DNA from: Escherichia phage JLBYU07
Sequence record: OK272485.1
Direction: 5' to 3' (one strand)
Length of the DNA stretch: 50,290 nucleotides
Below, piece by piece: positions 986 to 46,751 of this stretch. The notes under the pieces are model-generated. The model worked only from the letters and a program-made list of their open reading frames with translations. It was not told the DNA's origin and ran no database searches. A program made the translations under genes and the position numbers. Every line of letters begins with the position of its first letter. Within the stretch, counting starts at the first letter, position 1.

Positions 986-1462
986 TTAGCTATTTGTGCT
1001 GTTATCACCTTTGTAGAATCGTCCGCCTGGTTCGTAGTCTGAATTTTTGACTACGCGCAACATCTCGTATTTGTCGCAACGGGTAGTAAGAGGCTTACCG
1101 TTAGAATCAAACCGCAGATCTGGACGACAAAATGATGCGCGGTATCCTTTGCATCCATTATATTTGTAGTCGTTATGCACCTTTTGTGCTCCAGCGGCTG
1201 AAATCATACCACGCTTTCGCCATTGGTTAACGACTTGCTGAGATACGCGTAGACGTCGAGCCATAGCAGGAACACCGCCATAATACTCGATCAGAATATC
1301 CAAGCGAGATTTCAGGCTTGCTTTTACCTCATCTCGCAGGATAAGAAATCCGGTTCGGTGTTTTCGTGGCTTTTTGTCTTTACCTCGTCGCGTTCCGTTG
1401 TTACCGTTAATAGTGCGCTTGTCGATCTCACCCGTAGACACCGCAATTCGTGCATCTTTCAT
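986..1462 (-). CDS. HTH-containing DNA-binding protein
   Basis: 158 aa; GAGGTG RBS; helix-turn-helix-like segment AMARRLRVSQQVVNQWRKRG; basic N-terminus. Confidence 0.5.
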   Translation of the reverse strand: MKDARIAVSTGEIDKRTINGNNGTRRGKDKKPRKHRTGFLILRDEVKASLKSRLDILIEYYGGVPAMARRLRVSQQVVNQWRKRGMISAAGAQKVHNDYKYNGCKGYRASFCRPDLRFDSNGKPLTTRCDKYEMLRVVKNSDYEPGGRFYKGDNSTNS

Positions 1463-3547: not shown

Positions 3548-3966
3548 TGGCTATAACTGATAAAGGAGATTATCTTGAGTTTTACGAAAGAGATCCAACC
3601 GACACTAGAAAGGAAGTTAATCACCAGATAGATAGCTTTCAGTGGTTGACTTATACTCATCCTTACTTGCTGGCGTGGCATACGGTAAACGAGAATGAGA
3701 AGTCTAAAGCAACGGCGATGATTGATCAGCAGTCCGGCTTGGTTAAGGGTGTAAGCGATTTCATCATCCTGATTGGTTTAAACGGAAAATACCCATTTGC
3801 AGCGATTGAGATCAAACGAGTGAATAAATCAGGCAAGGGTAAAGCATCACCAGTCAGCGATGAACAAAAGGCTTTTTTGCGTCGAGTTCGCAGCTTAGGA
3901 GGATTCGCTGCGGTCGCCTACGGATTTAATCAGTTTAAGTTGGCTATTGAATACATGCTTAAATAG
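3547..3966 (+). CDS. VRR-NUC domain nuclease
   Basis: 139 aa; PD-(D/E)XK-type pattern GVSDFIIL...AIEIK...SDEQ typical of VRR-NUC; ATGA-coupled to helicase; stop TAG lies in conserved box. Confidence 0.75.
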   Translation: MAITDKGDYLEFYERDPTDTRKEVNHQIDSFQWLTYTHPYLLAWHTVNENEKSKATAMIDQQSGLVKGVSDFIILIGLNGKYPFAAIEIKRVNKSGKGKASPVSDEQKAFLRRVRSLGGFAAVAYGFNQFKLAIEYMLK

Positions 3967-8390: not shown

Positions 8391-8786
8391 TCATGTGAGA
8401 TTGAATTTACGGCGCAGTGCTTCAAGATCTTGTCTATTAGCTTTTGCCTGGAACAATTCATCATCGCCCATCTCCCCTATTCTAGCCATATCCCTGATCC
8501 AGTCGTTGCGCATACCATCCAGGCTATACAATTCGAATCCGAAAGGCCGCTTTGACGATCCTTTGGACCAGTATTTTCCGCAGACTCCATCTATATAACC
8601 AGCCGTCATCATTCTTGCGCAAAATTCCTTAGATGCAAGGCTGGCGAACATTCGCGGCGTAAGTCCGGCGGCCCGTGCGAGCCGCTCACATTCTCTATGC
8701 TGATAGATAAATTTGGCTATGTGCTGCCTGTTAAACCAGTCGTATGACTCACACCATTTATACAGATCAAGCAAAAACATAATCAT
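8391..8786 (-). CDS. hypothetical protein
   Basis: 131 aa; ATGA-coupled to upstream ATPase gene. Confidence 0.5.
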   Translation of the reverse strand: MIMFLLDLYKWCESYDWFNRQHIAKFIYQHRECERLARAAGLTPRMFASLASKEFCARMMTAGYIDGVCGKYWSKGSSKRPFGFELYSLDGMRNDWIRDMARIGEMGDDELFQAKANRQDLEALRRKFNLT

Positions 8787-10363
8787 CCCAGCAGTATTGG
8801 ATTGACAAAAATAACACCATTAATCACACAAACATAATTTCTTTCTTCCAGCATTGGCAGCAAGTGCCCTTCTATCCTCTTCATTACGCCAGCCTGACCA
8901 ACGAAAGGTTTTACCTTTCTCGCTGATTCGTACAGGGCGCGAATATTCAGGATCCCTTTGTTGGCCTTGCCGTGCCTCGTGATCAATTCAATCAATTTAC
9001 CCATTTCAGCATCATCACCAGCATAACCAGAAGCATTGGCGGCGCTAATGTATGTTTTGCTCAATTCCTGAAACATGATCAACGCCTCTTGCATTGTTTC
9101 CACGTCGATCTCTTTCGACTTCTGCGGGTATCCGGCAGGATTAAACCAGTTACGGATAACATGCAGGACGGAAGCAAGCCTGATCACCTGTTTATCCATT
9201 TTACCAAGCGCACCGCGTAACATTGTATGAGAATACTTTCCTCCGTCTGCAAGATGCGGTTCCATATCCTGGCGAGCAATGTTGAGCACTCGCATAGCTG
9301 AACGGCTTATTTTCAGCGATATATTTGATTCGCTCATGATGTTATGCACCAATTGATAATATTGGGCTTTCAATTCAGAATCCACCGCCTCATAGGTAGA
9401 ATCACCATTTTCATCAATGAATGAGCGACGGCCTAAGAATGATTCCTCGCGGACCAACAAAAAACGCTCACTAACACCGATGCCTCGCGATCCAGCGTCC
9501 ATGATTCCGCTTATCGTTTCATCCTGGGCTATAACGCTCATACATCCAAGCGCGCGAAAACTCATATTATTGTCAGCATTAGCACGGGCAATTGATACGT
9601 GACCATTATCCCACGCCTTAAGCACTAGCTCACTGTTAGTCTTTCTTTCGCTATTTGCATAGGTCAAGCCTAACAGACTGTTAATACTTGTTGCTTCGTC
9701 AGATATTACGGCAAAGTTACCTTGCTTGTTGTTGATTTTCGCCAAGCCTTCTGGAGTTGTATCTGAAACAGGAAAAGTTATATCACACATTTTTTCCAGC
9801 TTTTCCTCCAGATCCTCTTTTTCCTGGTATAGAGATTCCATATCAGCGCCGGATCTTTCGCTTTTCATCTCCTTTGCAAGACCTGCCAGCTTTGCCTGTA
9901 TTTTCTTTCTTTCCTTGCGGCGTTGCTCGTTGATCTTCTCAACTTCCGCAATCATCGGAGCGATAGCCATGCTGTTGATCGCAGATTTACCAGTTGACGG
10001 CGGCTGGCTTGTAACGACGTAAAGCGCAGTCGGCTGATCGGTTCCGTGATAGTCAACCGTAAAACGTCCAAGCATAGCGGCAGAAATGCAGCCGATAAAG
10101 TGCATGTAAGCCGATGATTCAGGGAATTGAACGGATCGCGCAATGCTGCGTGATAACTTGCCGACAACATCAATATCATTACCAAGAGAAATAACGGGGT
10201 AGCGATCGTGACCGCTATTCACATCCTTTACGTCGCCCCAAAAGCTGGACGACTGGCGATAGCCGTTAGCCTGAATTGATACGCGAACTGGTGAGAGGTT
10301 CTGGCTTTCAGCCATAGCGATTATTTGCTGTGGAGTTAATTTGTTCGTTTCTAATGAAAACAT
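8783..10363 (-). CDS. P-loop NTPase, putative replication-associated ATPase (DUF3987-like by inference)
   Basis: 526 aa; Walker A PPSTGKS and Walker B FAVISDE separated by a Lys/Glu-rich coiled-coil insert; AGGAG RBS. Confidence 0.5.
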   Translation of the reverse strand: MFSLETNKLTPQQIIAMAESQNLSPVRVSIQANGYRQSSSFWGDVKDVNSGHDRYPVISLGNDIDVVGKLSRSIARSVQFPESSAYMHFIGCISAAMLGRFTVDYHGTDQPTALYVVTSQPPSTGKSAINSMAIAPMIAEVEKINEQRRKERKKIQAKLAGLAKEMKSERSGADMESLYQEKEDLEEKLEKMCDITFPVSDTTPEGLAKINNKQGNFAVISDEATSINSLLGLTYANSERKTNSELVLKAWDNGHVSIARANADNNMSFRALGCMSVIAQDETISGIMDAGSRGIGVSERFLLVREESFLGRRSFIDENGDSTYEAVDSELKAQYYQLVHNIMSESNISLKISRSAMRVLNIARQDMEPHLADGGKYSHTMLRGALGKMDKQVIRLASVLHVIRNWFNPAGYPQKSKEIDVETMQEALIMFQELSKTYISAANASGYAGDDAEMGKLIELITRHGKANKGILNIRALYESARKVKPFVGQAGVMKRIEGHLLPMLEERNYVCVINGVIFVNPILLG

Positions 10364-11089: not shown

Positions 11090-11110
11090 CTTTTAACAAA
11101 AAGTGCTATT
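11090..11110 (-). promoter_or_regulatory. conserved intergenic box copy (minus orientation)
   Basis: TAG is stop of MTase-like gene; followed by hairpin GCCAGGTGTAAAAACCTGGC and ATAATC. Confidence 0.65.
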
Positions 11111-15025: not shown

Positions 15026-15084
15026 TTACTATCTCCTGAGCGGTTCGTTTCGATGTGTGTAATGTACCCGATCAGGTGGCCTGA

Positions 15085-15106
15085 GTTTTAACAAAAAGTG
15101 CTATTT
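15085..15106 (-). promoter_or_regulatory. conserved intergenic box copy (minus orientation)
   Basis: at head of leftward early operon, about 60 nt upstream of gene 14753-15025. Confidence 0.6.
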
Positions 15107-15134
15107 GACGGTTATCGCCAGGATTGCGATCGAA

Positions 15135-15212
15135 ATAATCAAAAGTAATCATTCGTAATCAAATCACGTCAAAATGATGATTGCCTTTGCAAATTTGATG
15201 AGAAAAGTAATC
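15135..15212. promoter_or_regulatory. cluster of TAATCA iteron-like repeats in divergent control region
   Basis: AGTAATCATTCGTAATCAAATCACG ... AGTAATCACGTTTAATCATTGG; four or more TAATCA units. Confidence 0.45.
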
Positions 15213-15659
15213 ACGTTTAATCATTGGTTGCAGGGGAGATAGTGAAACCTTCCCCTCTTGCCTCACTTTTCCGCCTGGCTGTCAGTGGTTGTTGTCTTTT
15301 GTTCACCCCTGTTACCGATTTCAGGCGGCGTGTTTCCGCGCGGTTTTCCGGTGTAGCGAAAACGGAAAAAACAAAAAAAATCCTATATAATACATTGAAA
15401 ATAAAGATTATTTATTTATATATATCTATAATGTTTTCTTTTTGTTCTCACTGTTACAGTGCTTTTTGTTGGGTGTGGTGTGGTTGTGTGTTGGTATATA
15501 TGGATAGTTGCGCGCGCGGCGGATTGCATATGTATATATACTTTTTCCGGCGGATTGCGTTAACAGCGCGAACAGAAAAATAACAGCCCTGAAATCAACA
15601 ACTTGCGCATGATTTTGTAGTTTTTCGATATTGGTAACGTTTTGAATACAACAAAAACA

Positions 15660-15687
15660 TTGACACGCACCAAATAGCTTTTATAAT
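15660..15687 (+). promoter_or_regulatory. near-consensus sigma70 promoter (TTGACA-N16-TATAAT)
   Basis: TTGACA at 15660-15665, TATAAT at 15682-15687; about 30 nt upstream of GGAGG RBS of gene 15719. Confidence 0.6.
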
Positions 15688-15718
15688 GCGCCAACAGTCA
15701 ACAACTGGAGGAAAGGAA

Positions 15719-29945: not shown

Positions 29946-29964
29946 GTTTAACAAAAAGTGCTAT
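29946..29964 (-). promoter_or_regulatory. conserved intergenic box copy (antisense within late operon)
   Basis: GTTTAACAAAAAGTGCTAT immediately before terminator and capsid gene RBS. Confidence 0.55.
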
Positions 29965-33631: not shown

Positions 33632-33636
33632 AACAA

Positions 33637-33657
33637 GGGGCGTTGCGCCCCTTTTTT
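33637..33657 (+). terminator. rho-independent terminator
   Basis: hairpin GGGGCGTTGCGCCCC followed by T6. Confidence 0.75.
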
Positions 33658-33696
33658 CATTCCTGTAAAATCAATCTATCAAATAAATCAATCCCA

Positions 33697-33716
33697 CTTT
33701 TAACAAAAAGTGCTAT
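33697..33716 (-). promoter_or_regulatory. conserved intergenic box copy (antisense within late operon)
   Basis: CTTTTAACAAAAAGTGCTAT directly abuts AAGGAG RBS of G chaperone gene. Confidence 0.6.
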
Positions 33717-43874: not shown

Positions 43875-44153
43875 TTACCCCCAAAAAGTATATATATATC
43901 TTGAGTCAGATCCAGAAAGTCCGCTCCATGTAACGGTATCACCACTTACACCTAAACTTGGAGCGCCTGGATCGCCTCCGCGCCACGAACTCATTCCAAC
44001 ATATATTGCTTTCAACGACTTACCTGGCGGCCTGTTTGAGTAGGTCTTACTGCCAGATGATTGAGTAAATTTATCCAAGAAAAAAACTGGAGTTAAAAGG
44101 CCAGTAACATTTCTACCTTGCTCATCATATATTGCATACCCATATTCAGCCAT
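43875..44153 (-). CDS. hypothetical protein (lipoprotein operon)
   Basis: 92 aa; overlaps end of lipoprotein gene. Confidence 0.5.
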   Translation of the reverse strand: MAEYGYAIYDEQGRNVTGLLTPVFFLDKFTQSSGSKTYSNRPPGKSLKAIYVGMSSWRGGDPGAPSLGVSGDTVTWSGLSGSDSRYIYTFWG

Positions 44154-44421
44154 TTTTGCACCTCAAATCAATGAATTTTCTTTCATCTTGCCAACGGTTG
44201 ATAAATTTAACTTCTTTATTGTCAACGCTCAACCTGTATTGCTTTTGGCTGAATCTGTTTTCGCGGACCGCATTAATTTTAACTTCATGGAATCCGTTAA
44301 CAGGGAATGTTTTAACGTTAAATTTTGCCGTGCAATCGATCTCCTTGAAGTTGCCAGTAGGCGAAGAAGAACATCCGGTCAGAGCGGCTACGGTGGCTAT
44401 AACTGCGATTAATTTTTTCAT
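44146..44421 (-). CDS. lipoprotein (candidate Cor/Llp-like superinfection-exclusion protein)
   Basis: 91 aa from ATG 44421 (AGGAG RBS); signal peptide MKKLIAVIATVAALTGC with lipobox. Confidence 0.55.
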   Translation of the reverse strand: MKKLIAVIATVAALTGCSSSPTGNFKEIDCTAKFNVKTFPVNGFHEVKINAVRENRFSQKQYRLSVDNKEVKFINRWQDERKFIDLRCKNG

Positions 44422-44476
44422 CTTCAATACTCCTTAGTTGTTGTTGACTGTAACTATACACGATCCGGCAAGCCGA

Positions 44477-44495
44477 GTTTAGCAAAAAGTGCTAC
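44477..44495 (-). promoter_or_regulatory. conserved intergenic box copy (minus orientation, variant)
   Basis: GTTTAGCAAAAAGTGCTAC about 55 nt upstream of lipoprotein gene start. Confidence 0.5.
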
Positions 44496-44864
44496 TTGTT
44501 ATTTTTTGTTTTCCGGTGTTATCTGATTTAAGACGGCGTAAATTTAGCGCAAATTTTAGCCAACATAAGAACAATAAATAATCAATAAAATAGGTATATA
44601 CATATAAAATCAATAGTTTATTTATTTATGTATGTGTATTTGTTTTTTCTTGTTATCTGTGTTTCTTGTGGTTTTGGTTGTTTGTGGTGATTTTTCTTTC
44701 TGAGTATCTGTATGTGCCATCATTCATGTGTATGTATATAATCCGGCGTATCTGAGAGAACAAGGGAACAAGAAAAATAACATATATTAATCATTAACTT
44801 ACGCGTCAAATTTGTTTTATTGCCATCTTAGAACGTTTAGAAAACAGAAAAAACAAAACAACTA

Positions 44865-44892
44865 TTGACTAAATCAACCAAATGGCTACAAT
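44865..44892 (+). promoter_or_regulatory. near-consensus sigma70 promoter (TTGACT-N16-TACAAT)
   Basis: TTGACT 44865-44870, TACAAT 44887-44892; spacer ACCAAATGGC resembles that of promoter at 15660. Confidence 0.55.
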
Positions 44893-44922
44893 GCACACAC
44901 AAAGCAACGAGGAGCATTAAAG

Positions 44923-45978
44923 ATGAGTGATTTTAACGCCTACACTAGCGAAGAAATGAGCAACGAGCTTTATCATGATCCTAACGCATGGACGGCTGAA
45001 TATGTCAGCGGTTCCAGCCTGGCGGAGATTTACAGCACTTGCCCGGCGTACTGGAAGTACAAGCCTCGCCAGGAAACCAAAGCACTTGTTTTCGGTACGC
45101 AGTCGCATACCAATTTTGAAAGCAAGGAGTTATTCGAAAAAACATATCGCCGCGCACCGTCGCAGGATGATTTTAAAGATCTGATCACAAGTCAAACGGC
45201 GTTGGCCTCAAAGCTGAAATCTTTTGGCCTGAAAGGTACAACGGGTAAGCAATACCCCGAATTGCTGGAAATGCTGTACAAGTGCGGTGAGGATCTCAAT
45301 GTATGGTGGCTTATCGAAATGATGGCAGAATGCCAGGCCGCAGCGGACGGCGTGCAGTTAATCGACGCGAAAGATTATGACGCCTGTGTAGCGATGCGGC
45401 GCGTACTTGAGGCAATACCTGAGCATAATGCTTGCATGAATAGCCCAACCGCGCAGCGTGAAATGTCAATATTCGGGATCATCAATGGCGTAAAAGTTAA
45501 AGTGCGCCTTGATCACGTTGACGTAAACAAGGATGTAAAGGCCACAATCATTAACGGTTACGACGAAAAAGGCCGACCGATTTATGAAGAAGTCATCTAT
45601 CCAGAAGCTGTGATTATCACTGACTATAAAACAACGGTTAGCGCAAATCCGGTTGACTTCCAGCGCCTGGCTTACAATCACGGCTATTATCTCAAAATGG
45701 CTTTGCAGCATGATTTATTTAAAAAGGCGTATCCAGACGAGGAAAGGCCAGTAATTGTGAGATTGCTTGCTCAAGAGAAGAAAGAGCCTTACTTGCCGCT
45801 CGCATTCCGCATGAACATTGAGCAATTGAAGATCGGTCGCATCCAGTACATGAGCGTGATCAACAAGTTCAACGTTTGCCAACAGTTAGATGAATGGCCT
45901 TCGTATGCAAACGGGCAACCAGAAATTGATCTTGATACTCCTGATTGGGTACGCGCTCAATTCAGGCAGTATCTATGA
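44923..45978 (+). CDS. PD-(D/E)XK recombination exonuclease (RecE/exonuclease VIII-like)
   Basis: 351 aa; GAGGAG RBS; nuclease motifs VRLDHVD and ITDYKTT; upstream of Erf and SSB. Confidence 0.6.
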   Translation: MSDFNAYTSEEMSNELYHDPNAWTAEYVSGSSLAEIYSTCPAYWKYKPRQETKALVFGTQSHTNFESKELFEKTYRRAPSQDDFKDLITSQTALASKLKSFGLKGTTGKQYPELLEMLYKCGEDLNVWWLIEMMAECQAAADGVQLIDAKDYDACVAMRRVLEAIPEHNACMNSPTAQREMSIFGIINGVKVKVRLDHVDVNKDVKATIINGYDEKGRPIYEEVIYPEAVIITDYKTTVSANPVDFQRLAYNHGYYLKMALQHDLFKKAYPDEERPVIVRLLAQEKKEPYLPLAFRMNIEQLKIGRIQYMSVINKFNVCQQLDEWPSYANGQPEIDLDTPDWVRAQFRQYL

Positions 45979-46039: not shown

Positions 46040-46708
<669 letters not shown>

Positions 46709-46713
46709 TAAAC

Positions 46714-46734
46714 GGGGCGCTTGCGCCCCTTTTG
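46714..46734 (+). terminator. rho-independent terminator (possibly attenuating)
   Basis: hairpin GGGGCGCTTGCGCCCC followed by TTTTGT. Confidence 0.5.
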
Positions 46735-46751
46735 TCATAGGAGAAAACAAA

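Follow-up and report, generated by a model that had tools for sequence, protein, structure and literature searches.

Two paralogous intergenic modules as candidate replication origins in a T1-like Escherichia phage

Introduction

Where does DNA replication begin in the T1-like phages, and what is the role of the long non-coding gap in front of their exonuclease gene? Both questions are raised by region B of Escherichia phage JLBYU07 (OK272485.1), a non-coding module at 44428-44922, flanked by a cor-like gene and exoVIII, in the 50,290-nucleotide stretch of DNA that was analysed, here called the window. The window belongs to a T1-like phage (Drexlerviridae, Tempevirinae, Warwickvirus). T1 itself is a classical coliphage, and T1-like phages are both common laboratory contaminants and candidates for phage therapy. 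Published analyses of TLS (PMC11447400) and of SU57 found no origin, the re-annotation of TLS reporting no iterons anywhere in its genome (PMC11447400), and our search of the literature found neither a mapped T1 origin nor a transcript map for T1-like phages.

An original prediction, made from the letters of the window alone, described region B as the paralogue of a second region, region A, and suggested that the two were duplicated early control modules. As the regions are paralogous and each copy ends in a sigma-70 promoter, this was right in so far as it described two paralogous modules attached to early promoters, but the ~380 bp upstream of the region B promoter look, in sequence, more like an iteron-type origin than an ordinary promoter control region. 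They look so because they combine opposed phased arrays, the most meltable TATATA-rich DNA, repeat words specific to each lineage and a layout found again in distant phages; strong constraint, and the possession of the phage's own primase and helicase in a family with no known origin, favour the same view. The proposal developed here, to which we give about even chances, is that the phage carries, in regions A and B, two copies of an iteron-type replication origin, each joined to an early sigma-70 promoter. Region B is the best candidate so far for an origin of T1-like phages: concrete, duplicated, family-wide and with defined sub-elements, where the genome papers found none.

Region B and its paralogue

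The ~500-bp gap that had been predicted between the leftward lipoprotein operon and the exonuclease/Erf/SSB genes is real. In six frames, 44486-44916 is the largest stretch of the genome without an open reading frame (ORF) of at least 50 aa, and the gap before the exonuclease gene is the largest such desert in all four complete genomes examined. A non-coding gap, typically of ~450-530 bp, precedes the exonuclease gene in 43 IMG/VR relatives, T1 among them. Region B contains the following parts.

44453-44497, minus strand: leftward promoter of the cor operon, consisting of the 21-nt family repeat and marbox GCACTTTTTGCTAAA (44478-44492), 19 nt, and the -10 hexamer TATAGT (44453-44458)
44497-44520, plus strand: array R1, three TGTT pentamers with ~10-bp phasing, TGTTATTTTTTGTTTTCCGGTGTT
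44526-44540, plus strand: CGGCG box 1, ATTTAAGACGGCGTA, a direct repeat of 44736-44750, with a positional peak at about -340 in 42 sequences
44565-44640: TATATA-rich block, candidate DNA-unwinding element, with the IHF-core match 44608-44620 inside it
44641-44663, plus strand: array R2, the second direct array, TGTTTTTTCTTGTTATCTGTGTT, 144 bp downstream of R1 and a direct copy of it
44665-44689, plus strand: GT-rich tract CTTGTGGTTTTGGTTGTTTGTGGTG, the homologous position in region A being likewise GT-rich
44729-44750, plus strand: second TA-rich patch and CCGGCG box 2, ATATAATCCGGCGTA
44759-44782, minus strand: array R3, inverted, reading TGTTATTTTTCTTGTTCCCTTGTT on the minus strand
44789-44801, plus strand: IHF-like conserved box AATCATTAACTTA, a perfect WATCAANNNNTTR in several relatives and in region A (15593-15605)
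44840-44862, minus strand: array R4, inverted and A/C-rich, GAAAACAGAAAAAACAAAACAAC, abutting the -35 hexamer
44865-44892, plus strand: sigma-70 promoter TTGACT-16-TACAAT, serving exoVIII-Erf-SSB

R4 stops 2 bp short of the -35 and overlaps neither promoter hexamer; it could double as an upstream promoter (UP) element. Region A, which is flanked by a leftward early operon and a rightward DUF7174-family gene, holds the same parts in the same order.

15026-15718: region A, the paralogous module
15087-15101, minus strand: marbox promoter
15107-15289: insert specific to region A, ~185 bp, holding most of the TAATCA repeats
15290-15313, plus strand: R1
~15367-15445: TATATA block
15432-15455, plus strand: R2
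15562-15585, minus strand: R3
15593-15605: IHF core
15660-15687: sigma-70 promoter, a perfect TTGACA-16-TATAAT

Over the 391-bp core that ends at the -35, the two regions share 68.8% global identity, compared with a mean of 52.2% and a maximum of 55.5% for composition-matched shuffles, so that the predicted similarity extends beyond composition. Two collinear blastn matches (E=2.5e-11, 75.5% over 94 nt; E=1.6e-7, 70.6% over 136 nt) are accompanied by shorter ones that cover the left promoter and the first repeat array, and the homology continues through the promoter itself. Judged by its sequence, region B is a true paralogue of region A. Region A also has more in common with region B of the same genome than with its counterpart in phage haarsle (62.7%), a hint that the two copies have undergone gene conversion or concerted evolution. 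The gene downstream of region A is variable, and for this reason only two region A loci were recovered from IMG/VR through that gene. The insert at 15107-15289 carries GTAATCA/TTAATCA repeats together with a GC-rich inverted repeat.

Several of the shared details in the original prediction need adjustment. The motif GTTTTCCGGTGT does occur in both regions, at 44508-44519 (one base from the position first given) and 15343-15354, but these positions are not homologous in the alignment of A with B. The elements TTATTTATTTAT, TAATCAAT and TAATCATTA and the GT-rich tract at 44665-44689 are all present. So are the TAATCA repeats that had been listed as common to A and B, although they lie mainly in the insert specific to region A. 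The region B promoter, TTGACT-N16-TACAAT at 44865-44892, was confirmed: its TTGAC anchor is present in 42 of 43 related loci and its hexamers are conserved family-wide. The resemblance noted between the promoter spacers comes down to a shared CCAAATRGC that sits 3 nt out of register and that haarsle and TLS lack in their region A.

Phased arrays and easily melted DNA

Short words confined to one region and set in phased arrays are one mark of an origin, and they are found here. The strict pattern TGTT-N5-6-TGTT-N5-6-TGTT occurs three times in the genome against 0.03 expected, each time in region A or B. When spacers of N4-8 are allowed there are seven matches in 50 kb (0.2 expected), six of which are R1 (plus), R2 (plus) and R3 (minus) of regions A and B, at equivalent positions; the remaining match falls within the ssb gene, in its glutamine-rich tail. 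Direct and inverted arrays are alike in their spacers as well as in their pentamers, with the common form ~TGTTwTTTTTyTTGTT...TGTTA, and since this likeness extends to the spacers the arrays are better seen as a candidate repeated binding site than as the arms of an RNA helix.

A second mark, an adjacent AT-rich segment that is easily unwound, is likewise present as far as a thermodynamic proxy for unwinding can tell, namely duplex stability computed from nearest neighbours in windows of 40, 60 and 100 bp. At all three window sizes the two least stable segments of the genome lie in regions A and B. At 60 bp their values are -57.4 and -57.9 kcal/mol, where the genome averages -81.8 (standard deviation 5.1) and the segment ranked third has -65.6, and the two least stable segments of T1 also fall in its regions A and B. 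The hexamer TATATA is enriched 26-fold in the two modules of this phage, which hold 16 of its 34 occurrences, and 27-fold in those of T1 (30 of 44).

Other signals were less telling. The predicted IHF-like site is there, in that AATCAATAGTTTA at 44608-44620 matches WATCAANNNNTTR, and region A has a core match at 15593-15605, but the consensus is not enriched genome-wide (seven matches, 3.7 expected), and the proposed host-factor sites are in general weakly supported. The helical phasing of A-tracts, a measure of intrinsic curvature, is unexceptional in both regions. The cumulative GC-skew minimum falls at region A, where it is uninformative because it coincides with a switch in gene orientation.

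Constraint and layout in the family and in distant phages

Comparison with related phages, which the original prediction had proposed as a check, bears out the module, whose layout recurs in 42 family sequences including T1. When these 42 unique sequences were anchored on the -35 and short words were counted by position, TGT peaked at -380 to -340 and -260 to -140, TATA at -320 to -220 and -160 to -120, the CGGCG box at -340 and -140, and ACA at -120 to -80 and -40 to -1; the layout is thus held in fixed register to the -35 even at 45-50% identity. The non-coding core is conserved to the same degree as the coding DNA of exo and far above the third-codon positions of that gene (75.6% versus 53.6% in one relative, 69.1% versus 46.3% in another), and on these comparisons the module sequence is under strong constraint. 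A footprint of 25 Tempevirinae highlights the pentamers, the CCGGCG box, the IHF-like box, R4 and the promoter hexamers, and shows the R1 consensus TTTTGTT..G.TGTT as conserved. In TLS, region B begins directly after a tail-gene terminator and has no leftward gene, yet the whole module from R1 to the promoter is retained, which indicates that the core module belongs to the rightward side.

While the layout is constant, the repeat word varies by lineage (TGTTA, TGTTC(AC), TGTAAC, TGTAAG, GGGGT, GGGGG). The word of the phage studied here is TGTTA/T; T1 uses TGTAAC/GTTACA, of which TGTAAC is enriched 15-fold, and TGTTAA; the TLS arrays read TGTT..TGTTCC..TGTTCAC; and region A of haarsle has four CTGTTAT units. 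Co-variation of the word with the lineage, a third mark of an origin in that it implies a cognate initiator, is therefore also seen.

The same arrangement was found beyond the family, in phages whose DUF3987 helicase is only 36-41% identical. Four such loci were examined (L052 to L055), one of which, L054, is cut by a contig end; the other three have a gap of 560-620 bp directly upstream of the helicase operon, which in these phages takes the form [small ORF]-DUF3987 helicase-primase-DEAD helicase-exonuclease-(Erf)-SSB. Each gap runs from direct words through a TATATA block to inverted words.

L052, 9060-9680: GGGGG seven times in the gap and at no other place in 21.5 kb, left of and inside the TATATA block, which is the least stable DNA of the locus; CCCCC runs right of the block
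L055, 68-632: GGGGT left of and inside the TATATA patch and ACCCC right of it, five in the gap and none elsewhere
L053, 9203-9759: TGTAAG/CTTACA in both orientations; the module lies ~1.5 kb from divergently transcribed terminase genes and its layout faces the helicase operon

In the phage studied here, region B precedes exo-Erf-SSB, and region A heads a leftward operon that includes the helicase gene, at a distance of 4.7 kb. Where lineage-specific words occupy a conserved layout alongside replication genes, the pattern is the one expected of a cis site co-evolving with the protein that binds it. From these sequences, the order direct words, TATATA, inverted words may serve as a common signature of origins that go with this replication module, and related uncultured phages could be searched with it for their origins.

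Candidate trans-acting proteins

No recognised initiator was found among the proteins encoded by the phage. Its replication-type proteins include a primase that matches a 667-residue PHROG primase profile over the profile's N-terminal half, and for which the T1 record notes likeness to an alpha replication protein, as well as a DEAD-box helicase, a VRR-NUC nuclease and SSB. Two further proteins could act at the modules.

986-1462, minus strand: Cro/YdaS-like helix-turn-helix (HTH) protein of 158 aa, encoded by a gene that overlaps the primase gene and is presumably co-transcribed with it
8783-10363, minus strand: DUF3987 'DNA helicase' of 526 aa (predicted local distance difference test, pLDDT, 86) with a C-terminal winged-helix domain

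A sequence search of the DUF3987 protein against solved structures gave nothing useful. The top structural matches of its model are all MCM2-7 or archaeal MCM proteins, and the modelled protein looks like an MCM-like AAA+ replicative helicase. The HTH protein is linked to the module by the distant phages: in L052 the ORF at 9681-9995, flanked by the module and the helicase gene, encodes its homologue (E=4e-7), which makes the Cro/YdaS-like protein, on sequence grounds, a candidate partner of the module.

If regions A and B are origins, a sequence-specific DNA-binding protein of the phage would bind the four ~25-bp arrays, R1 and R2 being oriented opposite to R3 and R4; the candidate binders are the HTH protein (986-1462) and the C-terminal winged helix of the DUF3987 helicase (8783-10363). 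Binding would open the TATATA-rich block that lies amid the arrays, probably helped by a bend at the IHF-like boxes and by negative supercoiling from the divergent flanking promoters, and the helicase would then be loaded at the opened block together with the P4-alpha-type primase. The bound arrays may also modulate the adjacent promoter, comparable to Rep proteins at iteron plasmids.

Weighing the alternatives

A number of observations weigh against the modules being origins. The module is register-locked to the promoter, with R4 abutting the -35, which fits a role in transcription equally well. Both flanking promoters fire away from the TATATA block, so an origin of the T4 or T7 type, primed by a transcript, is not indicated. 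Two origins in one 50-kb genome would be unusual, though there are precedents; the genome has three DnaA boxes (TTWTNCACA), none of them in A or B; and in T1 the two regions are only 56% similar, barely more than background. On the protein side, the fold match of DUF3987 to MCM has low template-modelling (TM) scores of 0.30-0.36, and the winged-helix match is generic and carries no indication of sequence-specific origin binding.

The main alternative is that the modules control transcription and nothing else. Here R1-R4 would be operator or upstream-activator arrays at which a phage regulator, such as the Cro/YdaS-like HTH protein, turns both early sigma-70 promoters on or off, perhaps by IHF-aided looping, with no part in replication. 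We regard this as possible, if rather doubtful. It accounts well for the register to the -35 that is fixed in 42 sequences, for the position of R4 against the -35 and the homology that extends through the promoter, for the sigma-70 promoter at the end of each region (that of A being a perfect consensus), for the place of the distant-phage module, likewise upstream of an operon, and for the HTH regulator family linked to it. It accounts less well for the scale of the module, since ~380 bp and four arrays far exceed what known early-promoter operators need, for the presence of the most meltable DNA of the genome amid opposed arrays 230-270 bp from the promoter, and for the lack of any overlap between an array and the -35 or -10 hexamers, unlike a simple repressor site. 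Origin and transcriptional control are in any case not mutually exclusive. It is unlikely that host factors and DNA structure suffice, i.e. that the module is an upstream activating region in which AT-rich, bendable or supercoil-destabilised DNA carrying sites for IHF, Fis or H-NS boosts or silences the promoter, like the regions at rrnB P1 and ilvPG, and to which no phage-specific protein binds. The IHF core matches at 44608 and 15593, the conserved AATCAnnnACTTA box between R3 and R4, the extremely AT/TA-rich DNA and the A-rich, UP-element-like R4 would all suit such a region, but the repeat word differs between this phage and T1, both of which infect E. coli, and is G-rich in the distant relatives, while the IHF consensus lacks genome-wide enrichment and A-tract phasing is unexceptional in A and B. 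The different words in the same host, the unremarkable phasing and the absence of DnaA boxes together disfavour a mechanism that relies on host factors only.

Two other explanations leave aside initiation and promoter control altogether. Terminase small subunits often bind phased repeats, and the arrays might be their sites, forming a pac-like packaging element of which region B is a second, uncut copy. Numbering in the GenBank records of T1, haarsle and TLS begins within region A, and the T1 record annotates 1-2800 as a repeat region, from which it follows that a pac site may lie in the insert 15107-15289; the numbering start, however, falls in this region-A-specific insert and outside the shared core, region B is ~21 kb from the terminase genes, and the distant phages have the module at the replication operon, with the layout of L053 facing the helicase operon. 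We consider a packaging role for the arrays very unlikely. Least probable of all, to the point of being hardly credible, is that region B encodes a non-coding RNA or small proteins. Pharokka-type annotations do call ORFs of 29-44 aa in it, and some GenBank records carry three small minus-strand ORFs, but in relatives at 72% identity stops or frameshifts interrupt all four small ORFs of the gap, and small protein genes were rejected as their reading frames are not kept. A structured RNA might be suggested by the mutual complementarity of R2 with R3 and of R1 with R4, yet R1 and R2 are also similar to one another and to the complements of R3 and R4, a similarity that takes in the spacers and that a helix does not need. 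Folding of the two strands was no better than that of shuffles (z -1.28 and -0.31), and Rfam gave no match in the whole window at gathering thresholds and, at E<=1, none on region B and just two chance snoRNA-like matches on region A; given these ordinary folding energies and the lack of an Rfam match on B, a structured RNA was rejected too. An internal promoter-like site at 44714 (GTGCCA-17-TATAAT) is not conserved in relatives and was discarded as a promoter.

Genes and sequence context around region B

To the left of region B lies a leftward operon whose first gene (44146-44427; PHROG Cor) encodes a Cor-type superinfection-exclusion lipoprotein, and to its right are the rightward genes exoVIII (44923-45978, ATG 44923), Erf and SSB. 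By megablast, 44300-45050 is a 100% match to Escherichia phage JLBYU26 (OK272483.1), and 94 related records were also matched. Among the annotations listed for 155 related GenBank records, region B has no assigned function and is either unannotated or mis-annotated as small ORFs. A search of 5,426 E. coli genomes gave no match to the module and plasmids gave only a 37-nt chance match, and the host or a plasmid was rejected as the source of the sequence.

Some observations concern the SSB gene. In the annotation of JLBYU26 it starts at TTG 46701, while phage Kalemo uses ATG 46752. A GC-rich hairpin followed by a T-run at 46712-46737 resembles a terminator and is a paralogue of 33634-33659; as the TTG start would place this hairpin within the SSB coding sequence, the ATG is the more plausible start. 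A TTGACA-18-TAAAAT match lies nearby, at 46653.

The 21-nt family repeat and host marboxes

The left edge of region B contains a copy of the 21-nt intergenic repeat of Drexlerviridae, aaATAGCACnnnTTGnTAAAA, which is already known and whose function was posed as a question by the authors of the TLS study (PMC11447400). This repeat contains an exact match to the E. coli MarA/SoxS/Rob marbox, GCAHWWWWTGYYAAA as printed in PMC6900184, the copy in region B being at minus-strand positions 44478-44492. This genome has 14 exact matches, T1 has 11, haarsle 16 and TLS 12, against ~0.02 expected per genome; examples in this genome are at 3966, 5015, 16452 and 18015 (plus strand) and at 11106, 13796, 15101 and 44492 (minus strand). 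With the longer 19-nt marbox consensus there are 16 matches at no more than one mismatch, where 1.2 are expected. In most copies the box reads along the direction of transcription and a -10-like hexamer follows it by 19-20 nt. A class II marbox is oriented forward, overlapping the -35 position (PMC6900184), and both features are seen in the left-edge promoter of region B (44453-44497). The exact match and this geometry suggest, at the level of sequence, that the non-early promoters of the family use host Rob, MarA or SoxS, which would be a testable answer to the explicit question of the TLS authors. Our literature search found no publication tying marboxes to T1-like phages. Two minus-strand copies of the repeat, at 29946-29964 and 33698-33716, stand in reverse orientation upstream of capsid and tail genes that are read rightward, and neither has a -10 at the normal spacing; they may represent a class I-like arrangement for rightward late promoters.

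All of this can be joined into a broader picture, which we offer tentatively and as less than probable. Regions A and B would be the origins of T1-like phages, at which opposed, lineage-specific pentamers recruit an MCM-like AAA+ helicase through its winged helix, through a Cro/YdaS-like partner, or both, and the TATATA block melts; the layout would mark origins in a wider, unrecognised group of phages with this replication module in common; and, as a separate matter, the non-early promoters of the family would be of the marbox type and rely on Rob, MarA or SoxS of the host.

Comparison with known systems

A counterpart to the duplicated module is found in Bacillus phage SPP1, a ~44-kb pac-type siphovirus whose related origins, oriL and oriR, consist of repeated boxes and an AT-rich stretch bound by G38P, its origin-binding protein. 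As with modules A and B, there are two sites per genome, each combining boxes with AT-rich DNA. The two SPP1 origins lie 32.1 kb apart on the linear map (PMC3561973). There is no sequence or protein homology between SPP1 and the phage studied here. The oriL of SPP1 lies inside its initiator gene and its helicase is of the DnaB type with a loader, while both copies here are intergenic and fused to sigma-70 promoters, and the helicase appears MCM-like.

Satellite phage P4 needs two separated cis regions, ori and crr, which contain the iteron TGTTCACC in both orientations, and its alpha primase-helicase binds this iteron through a C-terminal winged helix. The TLS arrays end in TGTTCAC and region A contains TGTTCACC, a resemblance to an octamer that may be due to chance. 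Here the three functions of alpha would be on separate proteins, the helicase is of the DUF3987, MCM-like kind, and the modules carry promoters and a TATATA block; a sequence search found no similarity to a solved domain of alpha. A similar architecture is known from the origins bound by SV40 large T and papillomavirus E1, where opposed pentamer or hexamer words, an AT tract and an easily melted element adjoin an early promoter, and where AAA+ helicases both recognise the origin and assemble head-to-head on it. The helicase here is AAA+ by fold match. The likeness is one of analogy and not of homology, and these are eukaryotic viruses with far more compact cores (~64 bp).

Iteron plasmids and lambda ori have phased iterons beside an AT-rich unwinding element, along with an IHF site; the iteron and its Rep or O protein evolve together, and that protein also autoregulates a neighbouring promoter. 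Modules A and B differ from these in having no DnaA boxes, in not adjoining a recognised rep gene, and in their composite iterons of three pentamers, set in four arrays over 380 bp. Finally, the A/T-rich DNA before the -35, the IHF-like box at about -70 and the destabilised AT-rich DNA farther upstream recall the UP element and Fis sites of rrnB P1 and the IHF site and stress-induced duplex destabilisation (SIDD) of ilvPG, from both of which the present module is set apart by its much greater length, its lineage-specific words and its duplication as a whole.

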